Shown one piece after another: positions 6,374-62,518 of a stretch of 64,000 bases of DNA. Below the pieces are notes generated by a model. The model saw only the letters and a program-made list of their open reading frames with translations, did not search any database and was not told where the DNA came from. Position 1 is the stretch's first letter. Each line of letters opens with the position of its first letter. Both the position numbers and the translations under genes were made by a program. Source of the DNA: Candidatus Micrarchaeota archaeon (GTDB lineage Archaea > Micrarchaeota > Micrarchaeia > Norongarragalinales > SBBD01); contig JAHJQN010000005.1 of NCBI GenBank assembly GCA_018819225.1, positions 35,286 through 99,285 of the forward strand, given 5' to 3'.

Positions 6374-6385
6374 GCGTTCAGCGCG

Positions 6386-6820
6386 CTACGCTTTCTTGAG
6401 TTTAACGCGTTCGAGGATGATGGTGGGCGAGATTTTGGTGACGCCATCCATCACCGAAATTTTCTCGTTGATGAAGCGCGTCACCTCTTCTTGGTTATGC
6501 ATCCACACTTCCATTAGCACCATGTGCTCGCCCGTTGAAGTTGCCAGATACGAGATTTCATTCAAACGGGCAAGCGCCTCCACGACTTTCAAAAACTTGA
6601 GCGGTTCGATATTCAAACCAATAAACGCCACGGAATCGAAACCGATCTTGCGAGGATCTACAATGGCTTGATACTGAAGGATCACGCCTTGTTTTTCAAG
6701 GTTTCGCACGCGATTCCGAACGGTGGCTTCGCTGACATCCAATTCCTCAGCGATCTTGAGGTATCGGACGCGACCATTTGAACGCAACGCCTTGACAATG
6801 CCTTGATCGAGTTCATCCAC
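6386..6820 (-). CDS. lrp: Lrp/AsnC family transcriptional regulator (copy 1)
   Basis: N-terminal HTH (LDxxIVKAL...VSEATVRNRV) and C-terminal RAM domain; about 85% identical to the second copy at 46720-47152. Confidence 0.85.
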   Translation of the reverse strand: MDELDQGIVKALRSNGRVRYLKIAEELDVSEATVRNRVRNLEKQGVILQYQAIVDPRKIGFDSVAFIGLNIEPLKFLKVVEALARLNEISYLATSTGEHMVLMEVWMHNQEEVTRFINEKISVMDGVTKISPTIILERVKLKKA

Positions 6821-6992
6821 GAAGAATACCCAAAGCCCCTACAAATTGCGAATTCCGCAGGGTTGATACTGAATAACGAAAAAATATAAGCATTATTCTG
6901 AATTTCTTCAGAATTATTCTAATTTTCGTCCCGTTTTCCATGAAGATTTACCGGAAATCTTAAAAAAACTATAAAATAAAAAAATTAAAAAT

Positions 6993-7024
6993 ATGAAAAT
7001 GGCACTAAAAAGTGCCAATTTCAT
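6993..7024 (-). terminator. Hairpin plus oligo-T downstream of the secreted-protein gene at 7032-7643
   Basis: 13-bp inverted repeat atgaaaatggcac/gtgccaatttcat followed, in minus orientation, by a T-rich tract. Confidence 0.4.
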
Positions 7025-7031
7025 ACTAAAA

Positions 7032-7643
7032 CTAAGTCAAATCGTACCAAATGTCGTACGCGTTGTAGTTAGGGGTCTTGGCTACAACGATCTCGTAGTT
7101 GATCCGACCGAAGCTGCTAGTAATGAAGTTGCTGAGGTTCGTGCAGAACCCATAGTTCTCCGTTCCCGCACCAGTGGAATCGAAGATGATGGCCGTGCTG
7201 CGCGAGTCCGTTGTGTTTAACACGCGCATGTTCAACGCACTCCCGCACTGTCCGTCGGATGCGGAAGAATCGAAGTGATTCGCGGTCACGTAATATCCCG
7301 TGAGAGAGAAGTTGCCGTCCGTGGTGCTGTTCGTTGAGGCGTTCACGAACGGTTCCGATGGAGTGACGCCGGTCTCAAAGAAGTACAGTACTCCTGAAGA
7401 AACGGGTTTCGTGTACAACACGTTGCCTACGGCGGTATTGTTCCGGACTTGCAGAGTCAAATTTCCGTAGAAACCAACGTACTGCTCCATGCGTCCTGTA
7501 ACGGTCAAGTTGCTGGACGTTCCGTTATCAGTTGGTGCGGCTACGTTCGTGTTATCCGATTGCTGAATGGCAAATACCATGGTCGCAGCAATAGATATTA
7601 AAAACAGAAATACTACGACGAATCTCTTATTTATATTCCTCAT
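7032..7643 (-). CDS. Small secreted N-glycosylation-sequon-rich protein, paralog A of a three-member family
   Basis: Sec-type signal peptide; more than 10 N-x-S/T sequons; 60-75% identical to the ORFs at 45947-46570 and 47403-48005. Confidence 0.7.
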   Translation of the reverse strand: MRNINKRFVVVFLFLISIAATMVFAIQQSDNTNVAAPTDNGTSSNLTVTGRMEQYVGFYGNLTLQVRNNTAVGNVLYTKPVSSGVLYFFETGVTPSEPFVNASTNSTTDGNFSLTGYYVTANHFDSSASDGQCGSALNMRVLNTTDSRSTAIIFDSTGAGTENYGFCTNLSNFITSSFGRINYEIVVAKTPNYNAYDIWYDLT

Positions 7644-7699
7644 TTCCCAACAACACCCCTCGATTTATTGATTTAGATTTAGCATATTCAAAAAAAATA

Positions 7700-7712
7700 T
7701 ACGAAAATCGTA
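7700..7712. promoter_or_regulatory. Inverted-repeat motif TACGA-N3-TCGTA upstream of paralog A (candidate Lrp operator)
   Basis: tacgaaaatcgta, plus a following T-run and about 60 nt of conserved sequence shared with the site at 47333. Confidence 0.45.
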
Positions 7713-7921
7713 ATAATATAGACATATATAAATCTTTCCATTGAGTAAATTAGCTATTATAATAAGAATAAACTAAATCAAATGTGGTTATTACGTTAAA
7801 ATAGGATAAGAATTGGATGTAAAGGGGATTAATGACGCGATGGAATAAATTGAAAGCAAGGACTCAAACGATAAGCTAAAAAGTAATCAAAGGCAATAAG
7901 GAAAGGAGGTGTAAATCGTTC

Positions 7922-8572
7922 ATGAAACTATTTATCGATACCGCTGATCTCAAGGAAATACAGGAGGCTGCACAATGGGGCGTCATTGATGGCGTCACCA
8001 CCAATCCGTCCCTGGTAGCGAAAACCGGGAACAAGGATTTCAAACAAGTCGTGCAAGAAATCACGAAGCTCATTGACGGGCCTATTTCAGCTGAAACCAT
8101 CAGTTCCGATGCCAAAGGCATGGTTGAAGAAGGACAAAAATACGCGAAGTGGCATAAGAATATCGTCATCAAGGTGCCGATGACGGAGGACGGCATTCAA
8201 GCGTGCAAGAAGCTCGCTGACGAAGGCATTCGAGTCAACGTGACCCTTGTTTTCTCAGCGAACCAAGCTTTGTTGGCAGCCAAGGCCGGAGCGTATTTCG
8301 TTAGCCCGTTTGTAGGCCGAATCGATGACGCAGGAGCTGACGGCATGCAGCTCGTTCGGGACATCGTGCAGATCTACAAGAATTACGGGTTCAAGACGCA
8401 GGTTCTCGCAGCCAGCATTCGCCACCCCGTGCACGTGCTCGATACGGCTAAGGCAGGAGCCGATGTGGCGACGTGCCCGTATAAGGTATTGAAGCAGCTG
8501 TTTCGACATCCCCTGACGGATAAGGGAGTACGCCAGTTCCTGGATGACTGGAAGAAGCTGCAGAGCGGATAG
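7922..8572 (+). CDS. tal: Transaldolase / fructose-6-phosphate aldolase family
   Basis: FIDTAD N-terminus, GVTTNPSL, catalytic Lys in the VIKVP context; 216 aa, short Fsa/TalC type. Confidence 0.9.
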
Positions 8573-13355: not shown

Positions 13356-13940
13356 TCACTTCTTTTCCTTCTTCTCTTCGCCACCCGCTGCGGCAGCCGC
13401 CTTTTGTTCCTTAATGGATTTGCGCAGGACGCCGACGGTCATTCCGCTTCGGCCGGTGGTCCGCGTGTGCTGGCCGCGCACTTTTTGGCCGAGGGAGTGT
13501 CTCCAGCCTCTCCACGAACGCATGTCCTTTTCTTTCTGCACATCGGTTCGGACGGCAAACACTAAATCGTTCATGAGCACGTGTTGGGCCCTGCCGGTTT
13601 CGGCCGATTTGCTTCGGTTCAACGAGAACTCGGGAATCCCGTGCTGGGAAGGCATTCTCAACATTTCATCAATTTTATCGATCTGTTCGTCCGTCAAGTC
13701 CCCGCAACGCATTTGGAGCGGTAACTTCAATTCGTTTCGGATGACGCGTTCCATGGCATAAGCGAGATTGGATCCCACGCCGCGTACGCGCAATAGTCCT
13801 CGGTACAACAGCATGTGGCCGTCAACGTCCTTTCCGGCGATACGAATGACGCCTCGAAAATTCTCGTCCTCTGCCTTTTCGGGCTTCGCTTGCACGGAAG
13901 GCGCGCGCGGGCCTTTTTTCTTAAATTCTTTCTTCGCCAT
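13356..13940 (-). CDS. rps13: 30S ribosomal protein S13 (uS13)
   Basis: RIAGKDVDG ... GVGSNLA uS13 signature. Confidence 0.9.
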   Translation of the reverse strand: MAKKEFKKKGPRAPSVQAKPEKAEDENFRGVIRIAGKDVDGHMLLYRGLLRVRGVGSNLAYAMERVIRNELKLPLQMRCGDLTDEQIDKIDEMLRMPSQHGIPEFSLNRSKSAETGRAQHVLMNDLVFAVRTDVQKEKDMRSWRGWRHSLGQKVRGQHTRTTGRSGMTVGVLRKSIKEQKAAAAAGGEEKKEKK

Positions 13941-13958
13941 ACTTCATCAAAACATCAA

Positions 13959-14178
13959 GCGCCGGGACTGGGATTTACGCCCCTCTCTCTATTGGCGCGA
14001 TCAACGCAATGGCTTTCTTCAGGGAATATACCATTCCCGGAAACAGCGTTTGAGGCAACCTCTTGAGTCAGAGGATTCGAACCCAGGAGTCCTTGCGGAC
14101 ACCAGCTCTCCCACGTTTTCTGCCTGCTCGGGAGAAATACGTTTCCAGGCTGGCGCTTTAACCACTCAGCCATCCCGG
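13959..14178 (-). tRNA. tRNA-Ser(GGA) with two introns: canonical anticodon-loop (about 35 nt) and T-arm (about 100 nt)
   Basis: 5' part GCCGGGA-TG-GCT-GAGTGGTTAA-AGC-G-CCAGC-CTGGAA[intron 1, 14107-14141]A-GCTGG-long V arm-CTGGG-TTCGAATCC; the complementary CCCAG and the acceptor strand TCCCGGC-G lie about 100 nt downstream at 13959-13971 [intron 2, about 13970-14071]. Confidence 0.6.
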
Positions 14179-14232
14179 CACGTGAACTAACATTCTTCCA
14201 ACCTACCTTTATAAGGTTATCGACTCCCGGGC

Positions 14233-14676
14233 ATGAAAAAGCGATTTAAAGCCTGCGTCCGTTATTTTGACGTGGACCTCAAGGAAAAGGATATCCGGCT
14301 GAAAAAGCTGTGGAAAAAGTTGAACGACGCCCTATTAGTCGTGGAAGGAAAGCATGACGTAGCGGCTTTGAGGGAAGTGGGCGTGTACGCACCCGTGATC
14401 ACCGCGAATGGAAAACCCGAGCGCATCGTCCAAAAAGTGATTGCGCAGGCGCGAGGTAAGCCCGTCGTATTATTGTTTGATTACGATCGGGAAGGCACGC
14501 GCAAGACGCTGTTTTACAACGAATTATTTTTCGCGGAGGACTGCAACGCGGACCTGCAGCCGCACAAGCAGTTGAAACAACTGCTGCCGTTAAACACGAT
14601 CGAGGATTTGCCGACGGCGTACTACGACGTGATGGAAGAGATTGCTCTCGAGAAACGCGTCCGAAAAAACGTTTAG
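14233..14676 (+). CDS. Toprim-domain protein
   Basis: LVVEGKHDVAAL and LFDYDREG Toprim motifs; 147 aa. Confidence 0.65.
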   Translation: MKKRFKACVRYFDVDLKEKDIRLKKLWKKLNDALLVVEGKHDVAALREVGVYAPVITANGKPERIVQKVIAQARGKPVVLLFDYDREGTRKTLFYNELFFAEDCNADLQPHKQLKQLLPLNTIEDLPTAYYDVMEEIALEKRVRKNV

Positions 14677-15152
14677 AGAATGCGAATGACGCGACGCGCT
14701 TGCTCTCTGGAAAGCCCGAAAAACGTGACGGCAACGGATTCCCATTCCCGCGCACTGCGCTCGTCTTCCTTCGCCTGCGGTTCCGATACGAGAACGAACG
14801 CCGCATTCAAGCGCAAGCACAGCGAAAGAAATCGACGGTATTTATAGAGGCGGCGCGCGCGCGGACCGATAGGCAAATGCAACAATGAAGTCAACGGTAA
14901 TTCTATGGAAACCCGTGCTTCCTTGGCGAGTTGAACGAAACCGTTTTCCCGGTGAAATGAAGGCACGCGCGTTGGATTGACGGAGGCCGGATGGCGGCGT
15001 AGGGCTTCTTTCAGCCATTCGATGTGCTCGCTTTCCACGCGCGCGTGAGGGGGTAAGCGATGCACGTCCGCCCGCGATGTTAGAAATATTACACTATTTT
15101 TTTGGTGCACGCCAACCCCTTTTTTTCGCAGCGTCTTCGATGAGTCGCTCAA
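14673..15152 (-). CDS. Hypothetical protein (uncertain)
   Basis: 159-aa ORF, Arg-rich, no recognisable motif; overlaps the next ORF by 58 nt. Confidence 0.3.
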   Translation of the reverse strand: MSDSSKTLRKKGVGVHQKNSVIFLTSRADVHRLPPHARVESEHIEWLKEALRRHPASVNPTRVPSFHRENGFVQLAKEARVSIELPLTSLLHLPIGPRARRLYKYRRFLSLCLRLNAAFVLVSEPQAKEDERSAREWESVAVTFFGLSREQARRVIRIL

Positions 15153-15723
15153 AGGCGCCGTGCCTCATGGATTCAAGCGTATGATGAATTTCGGGATAAA
15201 ACCGCCAATGGTTATGATGCGCCAGCGTTCCCAAAACAGCATTGAAGAAATCGTGAGAGTGCTTTGGACCCATATTCGAAATGATGCTCAATGCTCGCTT
15301 TTTTTGAATAAGAGACCTTTGAGGTTCAAGCAGGGTTCGAAGAGCGGTTCCCGCGAATCGTGCGTCGGGTCCAAAACGTTTTAATGCCCTTTCCGCTTCG
15401 TGCTGCACCTGTTCATTGCCATATAATAAAATCCATCCAGCGCTGAGTGCGAGTCGTTGGTCTCCTAATGCTCGAATGGTGCGCGCTATTCGAACCACTT
15501 CCTCATGCTGGTGGTTGCGAATCATGGGAGCCATTAACCGATTAATCCTTTCATTGACTTGAAGAATACCGTGTTGTTCGATTTCTCCACTCAGAAATTC
15601 TCGTGCATCCGCCAGTATTCTTCCAGTAATCCGGCGGGAATGCAATCGAGAATAGGATGCTTGAAGTCTCTCGGGAAGCTTCCGAATCCCGCTTAACGGT
15701 AAGTCAACAATACGGTCGTCCAT
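15094..15723 (-). CDS. HEAT/PBS-lyase-type repeat protein
   Basis: Repeating helical units with conserved Leu/Ala spacing; 209 aa. Confidence 0.5.
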   Translation of the reverse strand: MDDRIVDLPLSGIRKLPERLQASYSRLHSRRITGRILADAREFLSGEIEQHGILQVNERINRLMAPMIRNHQHEEVVRIARTIRALGDQRLALSAGWILLYGNEQVQHEAERALKRFGPDARFAGTALRTLLEPQRSLIQKKRALSIISNMGPKHSHDFFNAVLGTLAHHNHWRFYPEIHHTLESMRHGAFERLIEDAAKKRGWRAPKK

Positions 15724-15729
15724 AACGCG

Positions 15730-16137
15730 TTATGCGTTGGGGATCTTTAAAATGACTTCGAAATACGCGTGCACGCCGTCCGACCCCACTAAATAGGAAT
15801 TGATGGGCACCATGTTTCGAAAACGTTTCCGCGCCTTTTGTTCCGCGTAATACGACATGGTTCGTCCCGGGTTCTGGAACTTGACGTTGCGGCCCGGCTT
15901 GCGTCCGAGGTCCGCCTTTCTTCGAGCGCGCTTGCCGCGGTGAATTTTCACGCGGGCAATGGCATAGCCCTTCTTCGCCTTGTAGCCTAAACTGCGCGCG
16001 CGGTAGGGGTTGGAAGGCTTTTCCGCCCGCTCAACGGTTTTCTCTTTCCGCCATTTCGCGAGTCGTTTTCGGAACGAGGGAAGGCGTTCGCCGTAGCTCT
16101 TAGAAAAAGAGTCCTGAACATGTCGATAAGCTCCCAT
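15730..16137 (-). CDS. rpl15e: 50S ribosomal protein L15e (eL15)
   Basis: YYAEQKARKR and NSYLV motifs of eL15. Confidence 0.85.
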   Translation of the reverse strand: MGAYRHVQDSFSKSYGERLPSFRKRLAKWRKEKTVERAEKPSNPYRARSLGYKAKKGYAIARVKIHRGKRARRKADLGRKPGRNVKFQNPGRTMSYYAEQKARKRFRNMVPINSYLVGSDGVHAYFEVILKIPNA

Positions 16138-16246
16138 TCTTCATCACCGTATTCTGGTCCCTGCGGATGGCAGGGAAATCCAACATCCATCTACTAGTAC
16201 GCAGGAAGCCATTTTTAACGCTTTTGGGATTGGATGAAGCCCTGCA

Positions 16247-17044
16247 TTAACGCCGGAGCACGCGGCGGAAGATGCGCCACACGCGGCCGAAGAATCCTTC
16301 ACGGGCATGCATGGGTTCCGTGCTCCCCGTAATAATGCCCACGCCTTCCTTGAGAACGCGCGCCGCAGGCGAAGAACCCTTGTAGAGTACGATGGGCGTT
16401 CGGGCGGCAATGCTTTCCGGAATCAAGTGATCTTCCGGAATCGAGAAAATAACAGGGACTTCCGCCATCGTCTCAATTTCCTTATTGGATAACTCGAACG
16501 GGGAACCCGTCGAGCGATTGACGACGATGCCGCGCACGCGCGTCTTCTTGTCCTGGCACAACGAAACCACTTTCGCTGCCGATGTGGAGGAAGGCACATC
16601 CGGCGTCGTGATCACGATGACTTCATCGCACGTCTCCAGAATATATTCGACGTCGGACGTGATACCCGGAGGGGAGTCGACGATGATGTAGTCGTAAGCC
16701 GTCATGCTCCACAACACGTTTTTCAAATTTTTCAAGCTCACGTCCGGATGGTACTTGAGACTCGCCGGAAGCACGCGGATGCCCGTTTGCGGTTGGACGA
16801 CGACGGCTTCCGAAACCTTGTTCTTGCCCTGAAGGACTTCTTGAATTCCAACGGCGCCGTAAGATAACCCGAGGTGGAGTCCAGTCGACGGATTGCTCAA
16901 ATCGCAATCGACGATAATGGAATTGCGGCCCATGCGCTTGAGAATCGCCGTCGTATTGACGGCTACAACGCTTTTTCCAACGCCTCCTTTACCGGATACG
17001 ACCCCGATAATCTTATTCTTACGATTAGTGTTTGCAGCTGGCAT
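16247..17044 (-). CDS. minD: MinD/ParA-type P-loop ATPase
   Basis: Deviant Walker A GKGGVGKS; 265 aa. Confidence 0.85.
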   Translation of the reverse strand: MPAANTNRKNKIIGVVSGKGGVGKSVVAVNTTAILKRMGRNSIIVDCDLSNPSTGLHLGLSYGAVGIQEVLQGKNKVSEAVVVQPQTGIRVLPASLKYHPDVSLKNLKNVLWSMTAYDYIIVDSPPGITSDVEYILETCDEVIVITTPDVPSSTSAAKVVSLCQDKKTRVRGIVVNRSTGSPFELSNKEIETMAEVPVIFSIPEDHLIPESIAARTPIVLYKGSSPAARVLKEGVGIITGSTEPMHAREGFFGRVWRIFRRVLRR

Positions 17045-17105
17045 ACCTCATTCTCCAAACACTAGACAACAAGCCCTTTTAAATGAGTTTGGGCAAGTGG
17101 TTAAA

Positions 17106-18920
17106 CTACTCCATCATTTGCTTGAGTTGCCCCAAATAATCGGAGCGGTCTTGCCGGAACTGTTTGCGGGCATGCGCATCATCGCGTTTTTTGCGGAAGG
17201 AAACGAACATGGCGGCCGCCGCCACAATCGAAACACCGATGATGGCCGCGACCTCCGGTGGAAAACGCGCGATCAACGTGCTCACGGAATCGTCTTCGCG
17301 TTTGCGCACTTGAACGGGCGTGCTTTTCGCATTCAAACCGTCTTCGGTAAACAAACGGAACGTGAACAAGTGCGACCCCGCGCTTCCAACGGGCGGGGTG
17401 ACCCGGAAACCAAACCGCGTAATGCCTCTCGGGAGCAATGGTTTTTGGATTTCCAAGGGCTGTAATTCAAAATCAACGGGCACTTCCAGCGCGGCTTGCA
17501 CGTGCAGCGGTTGAATCCCGGAATAAAACACGTCAACCGCCACTTCCCCTTCTTCCCCCTCGAATAATTCGGGGGCGAACAATCCTTTGACTTCCACGAA
17601 TTCCAAGAGGCGCAACTTTTCCTGCGTGACCGCTACCTGGTCGGTCTGCCAATCCACGTACGTGGAATACGTGGGGAGGACAAGGGGAAGGACGTACGTG
17701 GCGTACGCGATTTCGTTGGGATTCAAATTCAAAAACTCCCATCGAACCTTTAACGGCCGTTCTTGAATGATTTCTCCGGGTTTATCGAGAAAACGAATGT
17801 CTTGCGAGGTCACATCCATGAGAGTGGGAATGGATTCGTAGACGTTGACGACGGGTATGGCTTTCGTGCCCAGATTGCGCACGTTGAGCGCGACCGTGGT
17901 TTCGCGCGCGAGCCGATCAATGCGGATGTGTCGCAATACGACGGGGTAGGGGTATTCGCGCGGAAAGCTCTTGACGCGCAATACCATGTATTCAATCGTA
18001 GGGCGCGTGCTATGAACCTCTAATTTCAGTAAATAATCGCCGGCCAACGCGTAATTCGGAACGGATAAACCGAAATTGATGATGCGTTCTTCTCCGGGGC
18101 GTAACGTCGTTTCCTTGGGCTGGAACGATACCCAGGATTCGGAAGTCCCGGTCACGAGCAAGCGAATGGTTTTCTCGGTTCCGCCGTCGTTGCGAATCGT
18201 AAAGGATTCGAATGCGCTCGTGCCCGCCAAGAGCTCTCTGAGAACCGTGTGGCGCAAGAACTTGATGTCCCCTTCAACGGGAATGATTTCATCCGGCAGG
18301 GGTTTCGGGGGCGTGAAATTATCGGTGGGCGGAATGAAAAATCCTCCGGACGAGCCACCCCCTCCCGGGGATTGCGGAGGAGGAGTCACCGGCGGATTCA
18401 CGACGGAAAAGCATTCAGAAAACACTTCGCTTTGGTTCGCGTAATCGTCGTAATACGCGGTGGCGTTCGCGCAGTATATGCCGATGGGAAGCGTGCCCGT
18501 GCTCCAGCTCTTGATGAGAATCACTTGCGAAAAACGCGAGATGAGCGTCGGCGAGTAATTGAACGAGTCCACGAGGTCATCCGTCGTGTTGAAGATGAGG
18601 ACTTCCGCGGTCGCGTTCGCTTGAACGGTTCCGTTGTTGTAAAGCGTGAGAACGAAGTCGCCGCTGGCCCCTGAATAAATGGGATCGGGAGCTACGGTCA
18701 GGTTTTGGATCGTGACGTTCGTGTAATTAGGCAAGTCGGACCGGAACCACGTCAGCGTGTCCGCGTAATCGGCGTGAGCGAGACTACTCAATAAGAAAAG
18801 AATAAAAAATAAAAAAAAGGTTTCATGGCTCACGTGACCTCGAAGAACATCGTGTACCATGTTTGTCCGATGCTTCCGCCTCCCGTGCCGATGTAGTCCA
18901 GTTTGTACTTGTAGAACCAT
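17106..18920 (-). CDS. Cell-surface protein with C-terminal TM anchor
   Basis: Signal peptide (likely start near 18860, FFLFFILFLLSSLAHA); many N-x-S/T sequons; PPVTPPPQSPGGGG linker; C-terminal TM plus basic tail. Confidence 0.6.
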   Translation of the reverse strand: MVLQVQTGLHRHGRRKHRTNMVHDVLRGHVSHETFFLFFILFLLSSLAHADYADTLTWFRSDLPNYTNVTIQNLTVAPDPIYSGASGDFVLTLYNNGTVQANATAEVLIFNTTDDLVDSFNYSPTLISRFSQVILIKSWSTGTLPIGIYCANATAYYDDYANQSEVFSECFSVVNPPVTPPPQSPGGGGSSGGFFIPPTDNFTPPKPLPDEIIPVEGDIKFLRHTVLRELLAGTSAFESFTIRNDGGTEKTIRLLVTGTSESWVSFQPKETTLRPGEERIINFGLSVPNYALAGDYLLKLEVHSTRPTIEYMVLRVKSFPREYPYPVVLRHIRIDRLARETTVALNVRNLGTKAIPVVNVYESIPTLMDVTSQDIRFLDKPGEIIQERPLKVRWEFLNLNPNEIAYATYVLPLVLPTYSTYVDWQTDQVAVTQEKLRLLEFVEVKGLFAPELFEGEEGEVAVDVFYSGIQPLHVQAALEVPVDFELQPLEIQKPLLPRGITRFGFRVTPPVGSAGSHLFTFRLFTEDGLNAKSTPVQVRKREDDSVSTLIARFPPEVAAIIGVSIVAAAAMFVSFRKKRDDAHARKQFRQDRSDYLGQLKQMME

Positions 18921-19789
18921 TCATCGTTCTTCGCCCCGGACGGCGGCGTGATGTTGATTCCGACGATGTATCGGCCGGGTTTCACGTCCTTAGCCCTTAC
19001 TTTAACCGTAATCTTTTGGGTCCAACCCGATTGGAAGACGGGAAATGCCGGTTCCAGCAAGACGTCTACCGGATCCACTGAAACGTCAAAGTACTTTTTG
19101 GTTTCCTCGGGGTCGACGTCGACGGTACGCGTGCCATCCGCGAACTCGCTTAACTTGAGCTCGCCGTGCGGCGGGTATTCAACCGAGAAGGCCATGCCCT
19201 GATAGGTCTGCACGAGCCACGTGGAATGGATGAAGAAATGCGTTTCGTATTCGTCGTTTCGTCTGGATAGCACGATGACTTCGCTCGGGAACGTTCCGTA
19301 ACCGACTGCGGCCCAGCGGTCCGTCGGAGGATACTGGTACAATTTGCACCCGCTTTCATCGAACATGGGATACCATTCGGGCTGTTTCCAATAATTTTCC
19401 CCGAAATAGTTGGTGTCCGAAATTTTTCCGAGGTGGAACAACAGCTTTTGGACGTAGAAATCTTCAGGGAACGGAGGGACCTCGGCATACACTTGGGGAG
19501 GCAAGTCGCATCGCCGCTTGGCGATCTCGAACGGATCTTCCTGGTATTGCTGCAGGCGAACCATCAAGTCCGGGTACTTGGTCCAGAACGGATCCTCGGT
19601 CGGCGTCGGGGTTGTGGCCACTGTTATGGCCGTTGGAATGATTGTAGGCACCGGAGCCGGAGGAGCAAACGCGTCCTGCAACGGTCCCAAGAAATACAGT
19701 GCGAGCACCGCGATCACGGCCAATCCAATCCACACTTCCTTGCCCATTTTCTTTCCGTGATGCGACGTGCTATGAGGCTTCTTCTTCAT
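18830..19789 (-). CDS. N-terminally membrane-anchored extracellular protein
   Basis: His/Lys-rich N-terminus, one TM segment, PT-rich linker, then a 240-aa globular domain. Confidence 0.6.
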   Translation of the reverse strand: MKKKPHSTSHHGKKMGKEVWIGLAVIAVLALYFLGPLQDAFAPPAPVPTIIPTAITVATTPTPTEDPFWTKYPDLMVRLQQYQEDPFEIAKRRCDLPPQVYAEVPPFPEDFYVQKLLFHLGKISDTNYFGENYWKQPEWYPMFDESGCKLYQYPPTDRWAAVGYGTFPSEVIVLSRRNDEYETHFFIHSTWLVQTYQGMAFSVEYPPHGELKLSEFADGTRTVDVDPEETKKYFDVSVDPVDVLLEPAFPVFQSGWTQKITVKVRAKDVKPGRYIVGINITPPSGAKNDEWFYKYKLDYIGTGGGSIGQTWYTMFFEVT

Positions 19790-19809
19790 GATCTTTCCCC
19801 CTCTTATGC

Positions 19810-20418
19810 TTAGTTCGCGTTCGTGCTGTTGTGCGTGATCAAACGCTGTTCCACGAGACCGGATACGGACGTGAAGTTCGCGTACAACGTCACGTTAATC
19901 GAACAACATGCGGGTGAAGCCGTGGTATTGAGTTCCTGGAAAATCATTGCTTCCATGGAATTGTTCAACGGAATCTCTGGACCAATAGTTACCGCGTTGT
20001 TACCCACTCCACTTGCAGAACTGTTCACGCCCACCGTAATACCCGATGGAAGCGATGAATTGAATATGAGCGTCATGCTGAGATTCACGTTTCCGGCATT
20101 CGTGTACTGGAAAATAGGTACCGCTGCTCCGGCTTGACACGAACCGCCGAATGCGGTGGTCAAACACGGTTCGACTCGCGTGCACGTTCCGGTGACGCAG
20201 GTAAAGTTAATGTCTGCAGTTGCGGGGCCGGGATCGGATGCACTCGAAGCATTCGCTTCACCGGCTCCCAACGGTAATGTAATCGTGAAACCCGTGTCCA
20301 CCGGGACATTGAAGATGACGGCGGTATTCGCCCATTCCGCTAACGGCATGGCAGCCAACGCAATAAATGCGGCAACAAAAACAATCAAGCGAAAGTGTTT
20401 CCAAACCATTGCGTCCAC
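19810..20418 (-). CDS. Secreted Cys-containing glycoprotein
   Basis: Signal peptide; 8 Cys; multiple sequons. Confidence 0.55.
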   Translation of the reverse strand: MDAMVWKHFRLIVFVAAFIALAAMPLAEWANTAVIFNVPVDTGFTITLPLGAGEANASSASDPGPATADINFTCVTGTCTRVEPCLTTAFGGSCQAGAAVPIFQYTNAGNVNLSMTLIFNSSLPSGITVGVNSSASGVGNNAVTIGPEIPLNNSMEAMIFQELNTTASPACCSINVTLYANFTSVSGLVEQRLITHNSTNAN

Positions 20419-20496
20419 CTTTTAATTATACGAAGCGGGGATATGAATCCGTGACGTTTAAGGCCTATATAAAGCTTTCTGCGAGGGAAAAAATAA

Positions 20497-23400
20497 CTAT
20501 TGTGATGCGGTGGCGTTGTGAGTAATTTCCACCCACTCGGCCATGCCTCCGCTGACGCCGCTGAAATCAGCCCAGCACCATAACTGTTCCCCTTCGCCCG
20601 TTGGAACCGTCGTATTCACGAGGAACGGATCCGCCGCACTCGTATTGGTATTAATGGTGTGAGAGCTTCCGTAACCTGCGCCGGAATTGTGACATTTGAG
20701 GGTCACCCCCGTTGGAGGCGTTGCATTCAAGTAAATACTCCAATTGAGATTTGCATCCCCCGTATTATTGAAAATAAAGAACGGATTATCATTGTTTTGA
20801 CAATTCGCGGTATATCCGACGCATGGATGCACCTCCGTTTGATCGCCCGTCAAACTCGTGAAGTTCATGTCCAAGGTAAATGCAGGCGTGTAGTTGATGT
20901 GCAAGGCTGGTTTATTATTTAGTGAGTGGTTTGCAGAAGAGATCACAAAACGTTCTGTTCCTGAATCGGGCACAGATACCGCACCGAAGATGGAAATCCA
21001 TTCCGGGTGATTCAATATTTGGGCATGGGCGATCGCTGGATCCAACGTGAAGTTCTTGTAACCGGTACTCTCGAATAATGCGGCAGTGGAATTCCAGGTA
21101 TTCGAAGCATCATTAGAATGCATGGCTTTACAAGATATTAACTGCACGCGACTGACAACATGACCACCCAAAAGTCCATTGTTTTCTCCTGGATTGGTAG
21201 CAGTGGAAACATATAATTCTGCTAGAATTTCATTGAAAATAATTCCGGATCCATTCGTTAATCCGGTTTCAAAATCCATATGCCATTTTCCGGATGCCCC
21301 TATCCCAAGGGTTTGGTTGGCTTCAATCAATTCATCTCCTTCCGGCGTACAAGCCGCATTTCCTGCATTTCCATACTCTGCAATATCAAAACTGGGGTAA
21401 ACCGCTATAGTTCGAGAATAGTTCGCAGTAGAACCAACGGCTCCCCTTCCGGGAATCGTTAACGTAAACGATGTGACGGCTGGCACGGTCCAAGGCATAC
21501 GGATGTGCACCTCGCGGTTCGTGCTCAACGTGATGTTTCGAATCGATGAATTGTCGGTATAACCCGGCGAACTGGCATTGAAGTAATGAGGCGTGTAATC
21601 CGTTTGCGTGTTCGTTCCGTCCGGCGCGTTGACGATCGTAAAAGCAGTGAGGGTCTGCCAAGGAGTCATTCCGTTCGAGTCCGTGGTGATTCCCGTGAGC
21701 ATTTCCGTGCCAGACGTGTAATTGGTGATCGAAACCGTGGCGCCGTTCATGGGATCGTCGGTCACGTTGGTGACATTCACCAACAAAAACCATTGCCGCG
21801 TGTAATTGTTTTCATTTCCCCCGAACGTGACCAGGAGGTCATCAAACGAACTGTTGCGGAACACGTGGCCTTGCGAACCGCTGGAGAGGAATAAATCCTT
21901 GTTCTGCGTGTCACGGATGGTGTTGTTGATCCACAGGCTGTTGTTGGAGGCCACGATATGGATGCTGTTGTTGGAATGGTTTTGAATCGTGTTGTTCGTG
22001 AAATTGTTGAAATCGGAGTTGATGATCCTCACGCCCCGCGGTCCTCCCGTAAAGTTGTTGTTCTCGACGACGTGGTCGGTACGCGTTCCCGCAGAAACGG
22101 ACCAAATACCTAATGCTTCCCCGTAACCGTCGCCATTATCTTTCATTTCCTCCACTGTATTGTTCCGAACGACGCACCACGCATTGTCGCCGGTCCCCTC
22201 GTAACCCAGCGCCATGCCGTACGGAGACTGGTTGACGTAATTGTTTTCTATCGTGCAGTTATCGGAGTGGCCGTAGAAGAGGACGGAAAAATCAGCTCCT
22301 GACGGCGTGTGAACCGTGTTGTTTCGGAAAATGGTGTTGTTGGACGAGTCCTTGATTTGGATGGCTCCATAACCCTGCGTGCTGAAATTGTTGTTTCGGA
22401 TGGTCGTATCGTATGCGAACGAAGCCAATACGCCATGCCGATATCCGTAAAAGGAACAGTTCGCGACGTCGGTTTCGTTAAAGTTTGTAATCGATACATG
22501 CGTTCCAACGCGTCCTACTCGGCTGATCGTATGGCCGTCGCAGTCGAGCGTCAACGTATTTGCCGCGATGGTGAAACAGGATCCGGGGGGGGCCGTCAGG
22601 TCGTTGTTCAACAAGACGCTTTGTTTAATGGTTCCGCAACTCCCGTTTACAATCGCCGTAAAATTGTTTTTGTCAGTATCCGTTAAACCCCACTCGTCGG
22701 ATCCGATGCAATTCCAGATGTATTTATTCGGAGGCAACCCAAAAACATTAAACGCGGTATTCGTCGCATTCTGTAAACCCGTAGCGCTCGTATTCGAGAA
22801 GTTGGCGGCCCAAACTCCGGAAAAGTTGCCCCATAACGTTAGATTTTGAGGAGTTCCGGTGTCCACATCGATACTGCAGTTGAACGTAACCATCGCTTGG
22901 GCACTGCTGGAAACCGTGGTATTATCGGTCGCAGGACTAATCAATACCACGTCAGGGGGCTCGGAGTAATTGACATATAGATAAACCTGCGATAACGCAT
23001 CTTGGGAAGAGATGGGATCCCGATCCTTACGATCTTCATCCTTGATGCCAAATCCGAAGAAATTAGTTCCAAGTCCATTTTCCATGTCCGTATGAGCTGC
23101 GTCTATAAGGGTATAATTCGTCCACTGTAACCCTGGAACCGAAGCCACTCCGGTATGATAAATAGTCGAAGAATTCACGTAATCCCACGGCGAATCCGAA
23201 CTACCGCAGGAAAAACTGGATAACGGTTTGTTGATCGCGCGAATGGTATGGTTACTCGCATGAACAGTATTCCAGTACAACGAAGCCGTGATGTTGAAAA
23301 TTTGTGCAGTACCTGGAATGCTGGTGGTGTCCCAGTCAATTGCAGGCCGGTAATCAATATCGTTATAATAGGTTGCAGTCGCATTCGTGCACGAAGTACT

Positions 23401-25056
23401 CGTAAGATTTCCTACGATAAGAGAAAAAGCGCTGTCGACAGCACAACCGTAATAATTGTCGACAGTCGTACAACCAATACCCGAATAATTTATGGTGCGC
23501 CAGAACGTGGTATCGTTATTGTTTTCAGCAGCGGCATATCGCACAAACGGATCCAAGAATAACTGTTTGCCTTGCAAATTGGAGATGCGCAGCTCCGTTT
23601 GATTCGTCATCGAGAGCGAAAAGCCTTCCTCAATCAAGTCGTTGAAATCCAAAACGATATCGCCCGGTAACATGATGGAATGATCCTCGACGTAAACCGT
23701 GCTCCAATCCATTTCATCCGATGAGAGCCGTAATCCGATGGACTGAATCTTGTCGTGAATGGGTTGCGGCGAATCCCGGAAATCCAAAGCGAACTTCGGA
23801 TGTTTTTCGTTGCGCACCTGACCGCGGAAGTTAACCCCTAATCCCTGCTTGATTTCGTGAACGCTTTGATCGCGATTCTCGAATACGATGAAGGGATCCA
23901 GTTTCACCGTGTAATTGGGGGCTTGCAGTTGGAAGTGCGGGTTTTCCCACGTAAACGAAATGTATTCGTTGAAGCCCATCCACTTTCCGAAGAAGAACAC
24001 GTTGACGGGTTTCTGATACAAAATCGCGGTCTTGTATCCGTTGCCGCTTTCGATCACGTCCGCTTTCGCGCCAACGGCTTTCCCCGTCACCGGCAAGTCG
24101 GATTCGAATAATTTGACTCCGCGCGGTTCAATTAATGCGGGAACAAGTGTGGGCATAGGAGTGGCATTTGCGGTGGGCGACGCGCTAACAGATGGCGTGG
24201 GGGTCATCGTGGCGTTCGGGGTTGGAGTCATGGTCGCGTTTGGAGTCGGCGTGGGAGCCGGTGTGGAAAACGAATACCCGTCTTCCCGCGAGCAGTTTTC
24301 AGAATTACAGCTTTCAACTGAGAAGAAATACTGCGTGGATGCCAGGAGACTGGAAAGGGTTAGCGAATGCGTTTGCACGAGCGAGGAATCCGATTCAATG
24401 AGACTGAGATCGATGTCTTGACCGTAATAGACCGTGGAATTCGCGGGCTGGTCGGTATCCCAGGAGATGAGCGCGCTGCTGGTTTGGGGTTCTGCAGTCA
24501 CATTATCGATGATGGGAAAATCAGGGTAAGGCGTTGCCGTAGGCGTTGGAGTCGGAGTCGCTTCCAATTCGCAGGCGGTAGCGCAACACGTGCCGGAGTC
24601 GGAAGCATTGAGCCATTGATCGCCAGGACAAATTTCTCCCTCTAAACAAATCGTTCCGTTTTGTTCCGCGCAAGTCGGTTCAGGGGTCGGAGTCGGTTCT
24701 TCCGTGGGAGTAGGTGTCGGGGATTCGCAGGCAACCGCACAACACAAACCGGTATCCGAAGCGTTGAGCCATTGATCGCCAGGACAAATTTCTTCCTCAG
24801 AACAAACGAACCCTCCTTGTTCCGCGCACGTGGGATCGGGAGTGGGCGTGGGCGCTTCAGTTGCAGTAGGAGTAGGGGTTTCCGTTGGAGTCGGCGTAGG
24901 AGTAGCAGTAGGAGTAGGCGTTTCCGTTGGAGAAGGAGTAGGGGTGGGCGTAGGATCGTCGGCCCCGGCAACCGCAGCCAGTAAAAAGACAATAACCACT
25001 AACAATCCAATGTTCGCGAGCAGGAAACTCCCACGGAAACGGGAGGGAAACGGCAT
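20497..25056 (-). CDS. Giant surface protein (1519 aa): signal peptide, PT-repeat linkers, two 6-Cys modules, right-handed beta-helix region
   Basis: TPTPTP linkers; duplicated CAEQxGxxCxExEICPGDQWLNASDxGxCCAxACE module; many N-rich pseudo-repeats (NNN[FT]xxxxxG) as in PbH1/pectate-lyase-like folds; more than 100 N-x-S/T sequons. Confidence 0.8.
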   Translation of the reverse strand: MPFPSRFRGSFLLANIGLLVVIVFLLAAVAGADDPTPTPTPSPTETPTPTATPTPTPTETPTPTATEAPTPTPDPTCAEQGGFVCSEEEICPGDQWLNASDTGLCCAVACESPTPTPTEEPTPTPEPTCAEQNGTICLEGEICPGDQWLNASDSGTCCATACELEATPTPTPTATPYPDFPIIDNVTAEPQTSSALISWDTDQPANSTVYYGQDIDLSLIESDSSLVQTHSLTLSSLLASTQYFFSVESCNSENCSREDGYSFSTPAPTPTPNATMTPTPNATMTPTPSVSASPTANATPMPTLVPALIEPRGVKLFESDLPVTGKAVGAKADVIESGNGYKTAILYQKPVNVFFFGKWMGFNEYISFTWENPHFQLQAPNYTVKLDPFIVFENRDQSVHEIKQGLGVNFRGQVRNEKHPKFALDFRDSPQPIHDKIQSIGLRLSSDEMDWSTVYVEDHSIMLPGDIVLDFNDLIEEGFSLSMTNQTELRISNLQGKQLFLDPFVRYAAAENNNDTTFWRTINYSGIGCTTVDNYYGCAVDSAFSLIVGNLTSTSCTNATATYYNDIDYRPAIDWDTTSIPGTAQIFNITASLYWNTVHASNHTIRAINKPLSSFSCGSSDSPWDYVNSSTIYHTGVASVPGLQWTNYTLIDAAHTDMENGLGTNFFGFGIKDEDRKDRDPISSQDALSQVYLYVNYSEPPDVVLISPATDNTTVSSSAQAMVTFNCSIDVDTGTPQNLTLWGNFSGVWAANFSNTSATGLQNATNTAFNVFGLPPNKYIWNCIGSDEWGLTDTDKNNFTAIVNGSCGTIKQSVLLNNDLTAPPGSCFTIAANTLTLDCDGHTISRVGRVGTHVSITNFNETDVANCSFYGYRHGVLASFAYDTTIRNNNFSTQGYGAIQIKDSSNNTIFRNNTVHTPSGADFSVLFYGHSDNCTIENNYVNQSPYGMALGYEGTGDNAWCVVRNNTVEEMKDNGDGYGEALGIWSVSAGTRTDHVVENNNFTGGPRGVRIINSDFNNFTNNTIQNHSNNSIHIVASNNSLWINNTIRDTQNKDLFLSSGSQGHVFRNSSFDDLLVTFGGNENNYTRQWFLLVNVTNVTDDPMNGATVSITNYTSGTEMLTGITTDSNGMTPWQTLTAFTIVNAPDGTNTQTDYTPHYFNASSPGYTDNSSIRNITLSTNREVHIRMPWTVPAVTSFTLTIPGRGAVGSTANYSRTIAVYPSFDIAEYGNAGNAACTPEGDELIEANQTLGIGASGKWHMDFETGLTNGSGIIFNEILAELYVSTATNPGENNGLLGGHVVSRVQLISCKAMHSNDASNTWNSTAALFESTGYKNFTLDPAIAHAQILNHPEWISIFGAVSVPDSGTERFVISSANHSLNNKPALHINYTPAFTLDMNFTSLTGDQTEVHPCVGYTANCQNNDNPFFIFNNTGDANLNWSIYLNATPPTGVTLKCHNSGAGYGSSHTINTNTSAADPFLVNTTVPTGEGEQLWCWADFSGVSGGMAEWVEITHNATASQ

Positions 25057-25242
25057 GCGCGTATTACAGCGAAGTCATATTAAACCTTTTACAGAACCGG
25101 CGGGAAAAGAAACGCAAGTCTTTTAAAGCAGAAAGCGCATTGAAAGTGTTCCTTTGGGGAGTAAGCCGGTGCGGCTTGAGAACCAATTCAACTTGTTCTT
25201 GATTTCCTCATCGATTGCGCATTCATTATCAGGTCATAGTTT

Positions 25243-25548
25243 ATGGACGTCAACAAATCCCTTCGATTGGTCGTGGATACGGGCAAAGTCGTGCTGGGCA
25301 CGGACCGCGCCATGAAAACGGCGTTGCTGGGAAACGCGAAATTGATCGTGATTGCAAGTAATATGGCGAGGGATTCGCGACGCGATCTCGAGCAATACTG
25401 TAGGCTCGCCGGCATTCCGACCATGGAATTCAATGGGACGAGCATCGAACTCGGAACCGTTTGCGGGAAACCGTTCCCGATTTCTGCATTGACGGTTCTC
25501 GAGGAAGGGGAATCCGGTATCTTGAAGGAGAGAGGCGACGCGTCATGA
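25243..25548 (+). CDS. rpl30e: 50S ribosomal protein L30e (eL30)
   Basis: GKVVLGTDRAMK ... IVIASN eL30 signature. Confidence 0.85.
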   Translation: MDVNKSLRLVVDTGKVVLGTDRAMKTALLGNAKLIVIASNMARDSRRDLEQYCRLAGIPTMEFNGTSIELGTVCGKPFPISALTVLEEGESGILKERGDAS

Positions 25549-25973
25549 CGAAGCTCAGCATGGAAGACATTCAGAAAATGAACGCGATGGAGCAGATAAC
25601 GGGAGCGAAAGCGCAAGACGTCGTGGACTTGCCGGACCGCATCATATTCATTGTTCCCAAGCAGGATTTGGGCAAGGCCATAGGAAAAGGCGGAAGTAAC
25701 GTGTCTCGTTTGAAGCAAGGCCTCGGCAAACCCGTGGAAATCGTGGAAGCCGCCGACGAAGAAAAAGCGTTTTTTGCCGCGTTGTTTAAACCCGCGGTGG
25801 TTGATGATTATAGCGTGAATGAAAACGATGGCAAGCGTTCGTTGGACGTGCGCGTTCAGAACAAGGAGAGGGGCATTGCCATAGGACGAAATGGGGAAAA
25901 AATCAAGCGAGCGAAATTGCTTGGAAAACGTTACTACGGATATGAAGACGTGCGCATCGTGACGCGAGGGTGA
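25546..25973 (+). CDS. nusA: Archaeal NusA-like transcription factor (KH domains)
   Basis: Two KH GxxG motifs ([22 protein letters not shown]); canonical position between rpl30e and rps12. Confidence 0.85.
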
Positions 25974-25977
25974 AAGC

Positions 25978-26406
25978 ATGGCAAGAGGAGAATTTGCTGG
26001 AAGGATTCTGAAATCGCGCCGCAAGCAAGCGCGGTGGTTGCGAAAGAAGTGGAAGCGCAAGGCATTGGGCTTGAAATTCAAGTTCGATCCGTTGGAAGGC
26101 GCGCCCCTCGCTAAAGGAATTGTTTTGAAAAAGGAAGGCAAGGAGCAGAAGCAACCGCACTCGGGAATCGTGAAAACCGTTAAAGTTCAATTGATCAAGA
26201 ACGGAAAGAAAGTGGGCGCGCATTGTCCGCGCGACAAAGCCATTAATTTCATCGACGAGCACGACGAAGTGACGATTGCGGGGCTCGGCGGATCGCAGAG
26301 AGGTCAGATGGGTTCGATTCCGGGCATTCGGTATAAAGTCGTCGCCGTAAACGGGATTTCGCTCGACGAACTGCGCAAGGGCAAGAAAGAGAAGCCGAAG
26401 AGGTAG
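25978..26406 (+). CDS. rps12: 30S ribosomal protein S12 (uS12)
   Basis: Highly conserved uS12 core (PKKPNSA-type region, here [13 protein letters not shown]) and basic tails. Confidence 0.9.
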
Positions 26407-26412
26407 AGAGGC

Positions 26413-27021
26413 ATGAACCCAGACGTCAAACTGTTCGGAAAATACGATTTCAACGTGCAAGTGCAGGACGTGAGTCTCGCGAAGTACATTAGCCTGAAGC
26501 CGGTGCGCTACCCGCATACGTTCGCCCGTCACGGAAACAAGCAATTCGCGAAAGGAAAAGTCAATCTCGTGGAACGCTTGGTGAACAAGCTGATGCGCGG
26601 CGGAACCGGAGAAAAAATGGGGGGGAAAATCATTCGCACGCACGGTAAATTGCAGGGCAAGAAGACGCGCATGATCAAAACCGTGGAGAAAGCGTTCGCG
26701 GAAGTGCAAAAGCGCACGAAACAGAATCCCGTGCAAGTGCTCGTTCAAGCCGTCGAAAACTCGGCACCGCGGGAAGATATTACGCGCGTGCGGTTCGGAG
26801 GAATTAGTTACCAGCTCGCCGTCGACATTTCAGCCCAACGCCGGTTGGATTTATCGCTTCGAAATATTGCGTTAGCGGCGATCATCAGCTCGTTCAAGAA
26901 CCCGTTGACGCTCACCGAAGCGCTTACGAACGAAATCGTGTTGGCAGCCACCAATGATCCCAACTCGTTCTCGATCAAGCGCAAGAACGAAGTCGAACGG
27001 GTCTCGCGAAGCGCGCGTTAA
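26413..27021 (+). CDS. rps7: 30S ribosomal protein S7 (uS7)
   Basis: uS7 fold signature (LVERLVNKLMRGG...); 202 aa. Confidence 0.9.
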   Translation: MNPDVKLFGKYDFNVQVQDVSLAKYISLKPVRYPHTFARHGNKQFAKGKVNLVERLVNKLMRGGTGEKMGGKIIRTHGKLQGKKTRMIKTVEKAFAEVQKRTKQNPVQVLVQAVENSAPREDITRVRFGGISYQLAVDISAQRRLDLSLRNIALAAIISSFKNPLTLTEALTNEIVLAATNDPNSFSIKRKNEVERVSRSAR

Positions 27022-52474: not shown

Positions 52475-52547
52475 GGGGCTGTGGGGTAACCTGGTATCCT
52501 GCTAGCTTCGGGAGCTAGTGATCTGAGTTCAAATCTCAGCAGCCCCA
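52475..52547 (+). tRNA. tRNA-Pro(CGG), intron-less
   Basis: GGGGCTG acceptor; anticodon stem CTAGC/GCTAG with loop TTCGGGA; T-arm CTGAG-TTCAAAT-CTCAG; CCA not encoded. Confidence 0.85.
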
Positions 52548-52555
52548 CTCTCACG

Positions 52556-62203: not shown

Positions 62204-62260
62204 CGACCTTTTCTTTCAAAAAGAAAAGCTCGACCAAAAGAAATCGACATGTCGTACTCA
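62204..62260 (+). repeat. 57-nt palindromic insertion inside 16S (between GGAGTAAAA and TCCTGTAATCC); a copy of the element next to tRNA-Leu
   Basis: cgaccttttctttcaaaaagaaaagctcgaccaaaagaaatcga... versus 11113-11160 (rc) acgaaccttttctttcgaaaagaaaagcttcaccaaaagaaaatga... Confidence 0.5.
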
Positions 62261-62477
62261 AAATCCTGTAATCCTTAAAGGACCTTCAGTAGCGAAGGCG
62301 CTTGGCCAAAACACGTCCGACCGTGAGGAGCGAAGGCCAGGGGAGCAAATCGGATTAGATACCCGAGTAGTCCTGGCAGTAAATGATGCAGACTAGGCAT
62401 TGCAATGGTTTCGAACTGTTGCAGGGCCGTAGGGAAGCTGATAAGTCTGCCACTTGGGGAGTACGGTCGCAAGACTT

Positions 62478-62518
<41 letters not shown>

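Follow-up and report, generated by a model that had tools for sequence, protein, structure and literature searches.

A conserved five-gene module of Micrarchaeota and the strand-donated, membrane-anchored surface appendage that it is proposed to build

Positions 17106 to 25056 of a 64,000-nucleotide stretch of DNA from a Candidatus Micrarchaeota archaeon (assembly GCA_018819225.1, contig JAHJQN010000005.1; the whole stretch is called the window here) encode four exported proteins, and a gene for an ATPase of the ParA/MinD class follows them. The contig is 709 kb long, and its proteins are deposited as Candidatus Micrarchaeota archaeon (DPANN). All five genes lie on the minus strand and encode, in order, a giant secreted protein of 1519 residues (20497-25056), a small secreted glycoprotein of 202 residues when read from a GTG at 20418 (19810-20418), a membrane-tethered protein of 319 residues (18830-19789), a type I membrane protein of 604 residues when read from an ATG at 18920 (17106-18920), hereafter the anchor, and the MinD/ParA-type ATPase of 265 residues (16247-17044). 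The four open reading frames match exactly those picked out by an earlier, sequence-only reading of this DNA, as does the minD/parA-type gene that it placed next on the same strand. We propose that the first four proteins act, respectively, as variable tip adhesin, major subunit, assembly factor or chaperone, and membrane anchor or base of a surface appendage. For two of them the public gene call uses a later start. The small protein begins there at an ATG at 20409, giving 199 residues; this start is preceded by AGGTGG and is the likelier of the two, and an exact-sequence look-up of the 202-residue GTG form found no record. The anchor begins at M21 (position 18860), giving 584 residues (17106-18860), and in this form its reading frame overlaps the gene for the 319-residue protein by 31 nucleotides.

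The same set of genes is found together in related genomes. A scan of species-representative genomes yielded 34 loci (numbered with the prefix L), mostly from Micrarchaeota, with several from Iainarchaeota and a few on contigs that are probably mis-binned; L030, from a metagenome-assembled genome (MAG) labelled as a Chloroflexi bacterium, and L044, from one labelled as Thaumarchaeota, carry a DPANN-type module and are probably of this last kind. The order big protein, small protein, 319-residue protein, anchor of about 580 residues and MinD-like ATPase is common to the window and to L002, L003, L004, L005, L006 and L008, and it recurs in about 17 Micrarchaeota species with differing flanks, those of L003 being quite unlike those of the window. 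More distant genomes keep a four-gene core with a different big protein. Hidden Markov models (HMMs) built here and run over 38 distinct loci placed a gene of the 319-residue family next after the small-protein gene in 29 of 31 cases and MinD next after the anchor in 16 of 23; 18 of the loci have a big protein whose C terminus matches the small-protein HMM, and the anchor HMM has matches in 21 loci. Iainarchaeota-type loci retain the small protein, the 319-residue protein and a protein of 620-780 residues with a signal peptide and a C-terminal transmembrane helix. The synteny of the four genes with minD is therefore conserved across relatives and the link to MinD is real. We conclude with high confidence that the four proteins belong, together with the MinD-like ATPase, to one conserved module for surface assembly.

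Hydropathy shows a hydrophobic segment at the N terminus of each of the four proteins and, in the anchor, a C-terminal transmembrane helix as well, which bears out the signal peptides or membrane anchors ascribed to each of them earlier. Two other general properties had been ascribed to all four and hold only in part. Sequons of the form N-X-S/T are dense in the giant (66 observed against 26 +/- 4 in shuffled sequences), in the 604-residue anchor (10 against 3.1) and in the 202-residue protein (10 against 3.4), but the 319-residue protein has only one against an expected 0.5, so that the claim was overstated. Pro/Thr linkers stand out in the translation of the giant and also occur in that of the 319-residue protein, whereas the linker of the 604-residue protein is Pro/Gly-rich and the 202-residue protein has none. 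Elsewhere, the window has genes for a GT4 glycosyltransferase (37496-38548) and for a UDP-glucose/GDP-mannose dehydrogenase (58451-59866), the products of which could supply glycosylation of the sequon-rich surface proteins.

The giant begins with a cleavable signal peptide (residues 1-32, cleaved between VAGA and DD), which is its sole hydrophobic segment, and there is no C-terminal anchor. The region behind it, read from the translation (24529-24960, minus strand; residues 33-176), contains two near-identical modules of about 35 residues with six cysteines each (residues 77-111 and 129-163), set between Pro/Thr linkers. They follow the pattern CAEQ.G..C.E.EICPGDQWLNASD.G.CC...CE and match no family in Pfam. 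Residues 180-265 (24262-24519, minus strand) weakly resemble an FN3-like or purple-acid-phosphatase-N-like beta-sandwich, the fn3 match (E = 0.003) and the Pur_ac_phosph_N match (E = 9e-4) both lying below the curated cut-offs. Residues ~806-1075 (21832-22641, minus strand) form a right-handed parallel beta-helix with an N-terminal cap; matches of residues 843-1069 to Pfam Beta_helix (E = 1.9e-11) and NosD (E = 4e-10), together with TIGR03804 repeats, show that the beta-helix reported in the sequence-only reading is real. The pseudo-repeats described there as about 22 residues long are periodic, but the coils vary in length, and the autocorrelation has its maxima at lags of 23, 27 and 32 with no clean 22. 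The label of a beta-helix giant also overstates the case, since this single domain makes up about 16% of a multidomain protein. The cap region is common to the big proteins of L003, L004, L006 and L008.

The C-terminal part of the giant (20500-21492, minus strand; residues 1189-1519) is homologous to the small protein. It opens with the first-strand motif WTVPAVTSFTLTIPG (residues 1189-1203), which is followed by an insertion of about 190 residues and then by residues 1394-1516. Its identity to the small protein is 32% over 134 residues (BLASTP E = 5e-14), the small-protein HMM matches it at E ~1e-21, and, as judged by these alignments, the small protein is a paralogue of this domain. The same relation holds widely: the big proteins at the giant's position in relatives range from 831 residues (L008) to 1917 residues (Ca. 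Gugararchaeum, with FG-GAP/Big_7 domains), differ in their domains and are otherwise unrelated, yet in the 18 loci counted above their C-terminal ~130-170 residues are homologous to the small protein. In Ca. Burarchaeum, beta-helix proteins are encoded nearby on the opposite strand. A comparison of the giant with PDB sequences returned nothing significant. An adhesive role for the giant is plausible, and all four belong to the cell surface of an archaeon with a small genome, as exported or anchored proteins; this much of the earlier description of a surface-layer or attachment island stands, the words 'surface layer' excepted.

In the small protein, conservation is highest at the mature N terminus (residues 27-46 in the 199-residue numbering; 20272-20331, minus strand), which reads A-N-T-A-V-I-F-N-V-P...F-T-I-T-L-P and averages 3.22 bits per column against 2.26 in the remaining mature part of a 31-member alignment. 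Conservation alternates at positions i, i+2, i+4 and i+6 (T29 1.0, V31 0.9, F33 0.97, V35 0.84) and the segment then continues as F-T-V-T-L-P. We propose that residues 27-46 comprise a donor strand and the first core strand. An AlphaFold2 (AF2) model of the monomer is a beta-sandwich with a predicted local distance difference test score (pLDDT) of 83, in which residues 25-40 are unpaired and do not form a strand. Weak fold matches of this model are rich in donor-strand subunits, among them CsuA/B, a DUF1102 tube protein, AbpA, CS17 and CupE, and further TasA, CfaB, CanX, a Natrinema Tafi pilin, EcpD and Saci_0406; the pilin domains of FimH, FimG and PapG are also in the list. In Foldseek searches of the PDB the best match was the Csu pilus at E = 0.01, with none at E <= 0.001. 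A word-index search gave the family 32 members, and L002 carries small-protein paralogues in tandem.

The anchor consists of a signal peptide, a mature N terminus reading DYADTLTWF, about four immunoglobulin-like (Ig-like) domains, a transmembrane helix and a conserved basic cytoplasmic tail; its match to Pfam NPCBM_assoc/NEW3 (E = 4e-5) lies just under the cut-off. The mature N terminus resembles that of the small protein. After the A-x-A site, the anchor family carries [DE]-[FY]-A-x-x-x-x-[YW]-[FL], a motif of the same kind as in the small protein, and an hhalign comparison of the two families finds the signal peptide and N-terminal motif as their only common part (E = 2.5e-5). The parallel is kept in Iainarchaeota, where the small protein has TTMTWxVP and the anchor ..NW, ..SW or ..TW. 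The four proteins had been described as consecutive surface proteins; given the relation of the small protein to the giant's C terminus and the motif that it shares with the anchor, they are not independent and are better described as parts of one module. A search of a word index of 5.8 billion proteins returned only 4 relatives of the anchor, and all the named ones are from Micrarchaeota.

Hydropathy and an alignment of 7 family members place the transmembrane helix and tail at 17109-17264 (minus strand), the helix being residues 553-577 of the 604-residue form (17190-17264) and the tail about 27 residues long. Across this alignment the Micrarchaeota tails carry a conserved R-x-x-Y-L-x-Q-[LI]-K. 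Comparison of the window's tail (17109-17189) with anchor-like genes of L023, L030, L035, L040, L043, L044 and L045 shows that Iainarchaeota-type tails instead end in a ...LLGL... motif, for example KPLISRLLGLGRE. Such lineage-specific conservation suggests that the tail has a conserved partner in the cytoplasm, also in loci without a neighbouring MinD gene. Loci that lack MinD encode, directly after the anchor gene, a protein of ~85-109 residues with a single transmembrane helix and a coiled-coil-like region (L040 9321-9650, L043 5310-5582, L044 5067-5348, L011 13064-13321), which may be a further component of the module.

In the 319-residue protein a signal-anchor helix (residues 17-40) is joined by a Pro/Thr linker to a helical subdomain (68-152), behind which lies a beta-sandwich (164-318); a structure model with a pLDDT of 86 shows the same four parts. 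Weak fold matches of the sandwich include seven pilus chaperones (EcpB, YadV, FimC, CupB2, CfaA, CsuC and SafB) and no pilins. The protein has no Pfam match, including to the PapD-like families PF00345 and PF02753, and it has one sandwich plus the helical subdomain. No relation of its family to the small-protein or anchor families was found by hhalign. The family is large, with at least 435 clusters at 50% identity (E <= 1e-3), and almost none of the distant clusters is named. In seven loci, extra paralogues of the 319-residue protein adjoin the genes of big proteins, which fits it as an escort of proteins with subunit-like domains.

The ATPase matches Pfam ParA (E = 1.7e-22), has the deviant Walker A motif SGKGGVGKS and ends in an amphipathic basic helix, GFFGRVWRIFRRVLRR. 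Against the archaeal MinD model TIGR01969 (minD_arch) it scores 160.4 bits, below the cut-off of 201.75, and its weaker NCBIfam matches, which include CpaE-homologue and BcsQ models, miss all named subfamily cut-offs. By these profile scores it is a member of the ParA/MinD class rather than a certified MinD orthologue. The MinD gene is duplicated in L006 and L031, and in L028 it lies upstream of the big protein.

The sequences between the genes contain candidate expression signals. A candidate archaeal TATA box of the giant, close to the archaeal consensus, lies at 25077-25084 on the minus strand (TTTAATAT, with AAAAGG before it), about 24 nucleotides upstream of the ATG, and this spacing implies a leaderless or near-leaderless mRNA. 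Between the giant and small genes (20466-20496, minus strand), an oligo-T run, TTATTTTTT (20488-20496), stands directly after the stop codon of the giant, followed by AGAAAGC and TTTATATA, with its TATA at 20466-20473; behind this consensus TATA and ahead of the small gene lies AGGTGG, a Shine-Dalgarno candidate. From these letters we infer that the oligo-T run and TTTATATA may represent a terminator and a separate, strong promoter of the small subunit. Such signals would suit a tip made in few copies and a subunit made in many. A scan for sigma-70 promoters and terminators, which is not suited to archaea, gave counts no higher than expected from shuffled sequences.

We propose that the five-gene Micrarchaeota module makes a glycosylated, membrane-anchored surface appendage whose parts are exported by the Sec pathway and joined by strand donation (donor-strand complementation), and we put the probability of this reading at roughly 0.5. 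A tip or cap with a subunit-like domain and an anchor with a donor-strand-type motif, which are features of the donor-strand class, are both present. In the proposed arrangement the giant, secreted and without an anchor of its own, would be held solely through its C-terminal subunit-like domain, which would offer an acceptor site, while its variable N-terminal domains (Cys-rich repeats, FN3-like sandwich and beta-helix) would form the distal adhesive end. Copies of the small protein would then add beneath the giant and polymerise, each lending the strand at its mature N terminus (T-x-V-x-F-x-V-P) to the subunit before it. The anchor of about 580 residues, with the same kind of N-terminal strand and no subunit-like domain, would donate the last strand and so cap the proximal end, and its C-terminal helix would tie the structure to the membrane. 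The 319-residue protein, held at the outer face of the membrane by its uncleaved signal anchor, may serve as chaperone or assembly partner of the proteins with subunit-like domains. The MinD-like ATPase would bind the membrane by its C-terminal amphipathic helix and, as a positioning or assembly ATPase of the module, might position or cluster the anchor through the conserved cytoplasmic tail.

Several observations weigh against this proposal. An equivalent of the first segment (WTVP...FTLTIPG) is still present in the subunit-like domain of the giant, which could therefore be self-complemented, and the polarity of the putative fibre may differ from that proposed. The motif common to the N termini of small protein and anchor might serve in processing or recognition instead. 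The archaeal donor-strand fibres known so far assemble with no chaperone, and the sandwich of the 319-residue protein is also similar to domains of the NEW3/CARDB type (GxY strand). The Iainarchaeota-type loci have no MinD gene next to them, so the core can do without MinD. After the Csu pilus, the Foldseek list for the small protein consists of viral jelly rolls and carbohydrate-binding modules, and its fold class is therefore that of a generic sandwich; in the wider lists, generic Ig, MSP and integrin matches and viral jelly rolls are interleaved with the fibre proteins. Since the match lists of both the small and the 319-residue proteins hold generic Ig-like entries too, the modelled folds are suggestive only as regards a fibre subunit and a chaperone. 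Profiles of the two families gave no significant match among PDB sequences, whether to a fibre subunit, a chaperone or any other protein, and CfaE matches at E = 0.12-0.46 in these searches were not taken as evidence. The 31 members of the small-protein family gave scattered chance matches only in Pfam. None of the 31 matched the TasA/camelysin (Peptidase_M73) or DUF1102 models at E <= 1.

Among the nearest described systems are the haloarchaeal Tat-fimbriae (Tafi). In the scheme proposed for them, TafC is the tip, TafA/TafE the major pilin and TafF the membrane anchor (PMC11821415, PMC12337348), and their cluster also encodes the signal peptidase TafD and TafG (DUF5305), with a twin-arginine signal on the pilins (PMC11821415, PMC12337348). 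The likenesses to the architecture that we propose are a tip with a pilin-like part and a separate distal part, a membrane-anchored terminator, a beta-sandwich major subunit of ~17-19 kDa with an N-terminal donor strand (proposed in our case), and variable structural genes gathered in one cluster. In contrast, the signals here are of Sec type and lack a twin-arginine (RR) motif, and the module contains no signal peptidase, DUF5305 gene or regulator but has two extra conserved genes, those for the 319-residue tethered protein and MinD. Sequence homology between the two systems is not detectable, and the tip here reaches 1917 residues.

A tip, subunit and anchor joined by strand donation are well established for bacterial chaperone-usher pili. 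As in these, and in the archaic Csu type (CsuA/B subunit, CsuC chaperone, CsuE tip), the putative tip adhesin has a C-terminal pilin-like domain, following the logic of FimH and PapG, and the sandwich of the 319-residue protein matches PapD-like chaperones including CsuC, FimC and EcpB. Here, however, there is a single membrane, neither the module nor its flanks contain an usher-like gene, the candidate chaperone is tethered to the membrane and has one sandwich only and an added helical subdomain, and a ParA/MinD ATPase belongs to the module. As proposed for the module here, archaeal threads (Saci_0406), bundling pili (AbpA/TasA-like) and Pyrodictium cannulae (CanA/CanX) are built of Sec-secreted, heavily N-glycosylated beta-sandwich subunits linked by a donor strand at the N terminus, and a gene for a subunit-like cap is found in the thread cluster too. 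These fibres are regarded as chaperone-free, no anchor or ATPase is known for them, and they show no sequence relation to the families here; ABP pilin and thread families have been reported only from Thermoproteota and cannulae from Pyrodictium. ParA/MinD ATPases that position surface machines include TadZ/CpaE of Tad pili, FlhG, BcsQ and archaeal MinD4. The ATPase of the module shares with them the deviant Walker A motif, the C-terminal amphipathic helix and a place inside a surface-structure operon, but it has no MinE, MinC or secretion-ATPase partner, and its contact with the anchor tail is our proposal. The families are new in sequence, and in its logic the system varies on the known strand-donation fibres by the addition of two conserved components. 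A type IV pilus or archaellum was rejected: the signal peptides are of the Sec/signal peptidase I type with A-x-A sites, not class III, and the module has no gene for a PilB-type ATPase (T2SSE) or a PilC platform (T2SSF).

The main alternative is a stalked adhesin complex of fixed stoichiometry and no polymer, in which the anchor, one or a few small adaptors and the giant would make up a spike and the 319-residue protein would have a structural or stabilising part. This draws on the same homologies and synteny and explains most of the data equally well, as nothing in them demands polymerisation. The anchor's approximately four Ig-like domains could serve as the stalk, and a 319-residue paralogue paired with each gene for a subunit-like domain would fit heterodimeric blocks as well as chaperones. 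Nonetheless, the small gene has its own candidate TATA and Shine-Dalgarno sequence after the T-run, which suggests expression above that of the giant; the tandem small paralogues in L002 resemble major and minor pilins; and the best fold matches of the small protein are polymerising subunits. We regard the fixed spike as possible but rather unlikely.

We consider it improbable that the locus encodes a surface (S-) layer or envelope lattice, with the giant as an outer canopy like SlaA and the anchor as a membrane stalk like SlaB. A large, sequon-rich secreted protein beside a C-terminally anchored protein of Ig-like domains would suit such a lattice, and the paper on the Micrarchaeota S-layer itself speculates on a second, stalk-like anchoring protein. 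However, the S-layer protein described for Micrarchaeota (SLP_Mh) is a ~101-kDa protein with S_layer_N (PF05123), and this family matches 0 of the 4 proteins here. Unlike a lattice protein, the giant changes wholly in length and domains between relatives, with the C-terminal domain alone kept, and a lattice would leave the small paralogue and the shared N-terminal motif unexplained. Because of the missing PF05123 match and a giant too variable for a lattice, the surface-layer island of the sequence-only reading is unlikely.

It is more improbable still that the membrane proteins are cargo or landmarks of a MinD-driven organiser of the envelope or of cell contacts, serving cell division or a cytoplasmic bridge with the host, and that the giant is a mere neighbour. 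The conserved adjacency of MinD, its C-terminal amphipathic helix and the conserved cytoplasmic tail of the anchor would all agree with such an organiser, but the core is conserved without MinD in Iainarchaeota, the giant is linked to the module by homology beyond its position, and the module contains no division genes. Least probable is a cluster for a secreted carbohydrate-active enzyme, in which the beta-helix would act as a lyase or hydrolase on polysaccharides, with accessory binding proteins as its neighbours: a right-handed beta-helix is present, and Ig-like and (weak) CarboxypepD_reg-like modules are common in such enzymes, but the helix matches only the generic Beta_helix and NosD models and no pectate-lyase or GH28-type family even at E <= 1, the giant has no PDB sequence match, equivalent proteins have FG-GAP/Big_7 or other domains in place of the helix, and the conserved part of the module is a non-enzymatic set. 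In these profile searches nothing was recognised as a lyase catalytic domain, the finding that would have told against the adhesin of the sequence-only reading.

How DPANN episymbionts recognise and attach to their hosts is an open question, for which the module offers a concrete, conserved and lineage-specific candidate: a hypervariable distal protein is of the kind expected for host specificity, and the assembly parts are invariant. If the 319-residue protein is indeed a chaperone, the view of archaeal donor-strand fibres as chaperone-free would change, and placement of the anchor by MinD, if it occurs, would connect a ParA-type system of the cytoplasm with an extracellular fibre other than a type IV pilus. 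The work also defines three families, those of the small subunit, the 319-residue protein and the anchor, that lack any Pfam model. A broader and doubtful extension is that DPANN (Micrarchaeota and Iainarchaeota) might possess a class of surface fibres of their own that has so far gone unrecognised. This would be the first strand-exchange pilus of archaea in which each type of subunit has a dedicated PapD-like chaperone tethered to the membrane, with an anchor that spans the membrane, ParA/MinD placement in Micrarchaeota, and rapidly diversifying giant tips acting as host-recognition adhesins. In full-text literature searches, no paper connected donor-strand fibres with DPANN, and none connected pili or adhesins with genes of Micrarchaeota.

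The GC composition of the region is host-like, as had been noted from the sequence. In 2-kb windows over 16001-26000 the GC content is 0.485-0.536, within the 0.44-0.54 of the whole window, and recent horizontal transfer was rejected on this ordinary composition together with synteny kept within the phylum. The GC low of the window, 0.438, lies at 6001-8000, against ~0.51 in the rest. The module is flanked on both sides by core operons of information processing, L15e and then S13-S4-S11-RpoD on one side (13356-16137) and a divergent L7Ae/L30e-NusA(KH)-S12-S7 set on the other (25243-27021); in L003 and L008 the same module is placed between metabolic genes instead. Unannotated genes lie just downstream of MinD in the window (15094-15723, 209 residues), in L003 (12034-12744) and in L008 (14396-15124). 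Those of L003 and L008 encode multi-transmembrane proteins of 236 and 242 residues that are 69% identical to each other, and the 209-residue frame of the window has no BLAST match to them at E <= 0.01. In L006 (Ca. Burarchaeum), a gene pair for an ATPase (T2SSE) and a platform (T2SSF) of type IV pilus type (14451-16793) lies ~5 kb downstream of the module, an arrangement not seen at other loci. Farther along, the window contains tRNA-Pro(CGG) at 52475-52548, the sole tRNA found by ARAGORN in the 64 kb, and a complete archaeal 16S rRNA gene at 61555-63107.

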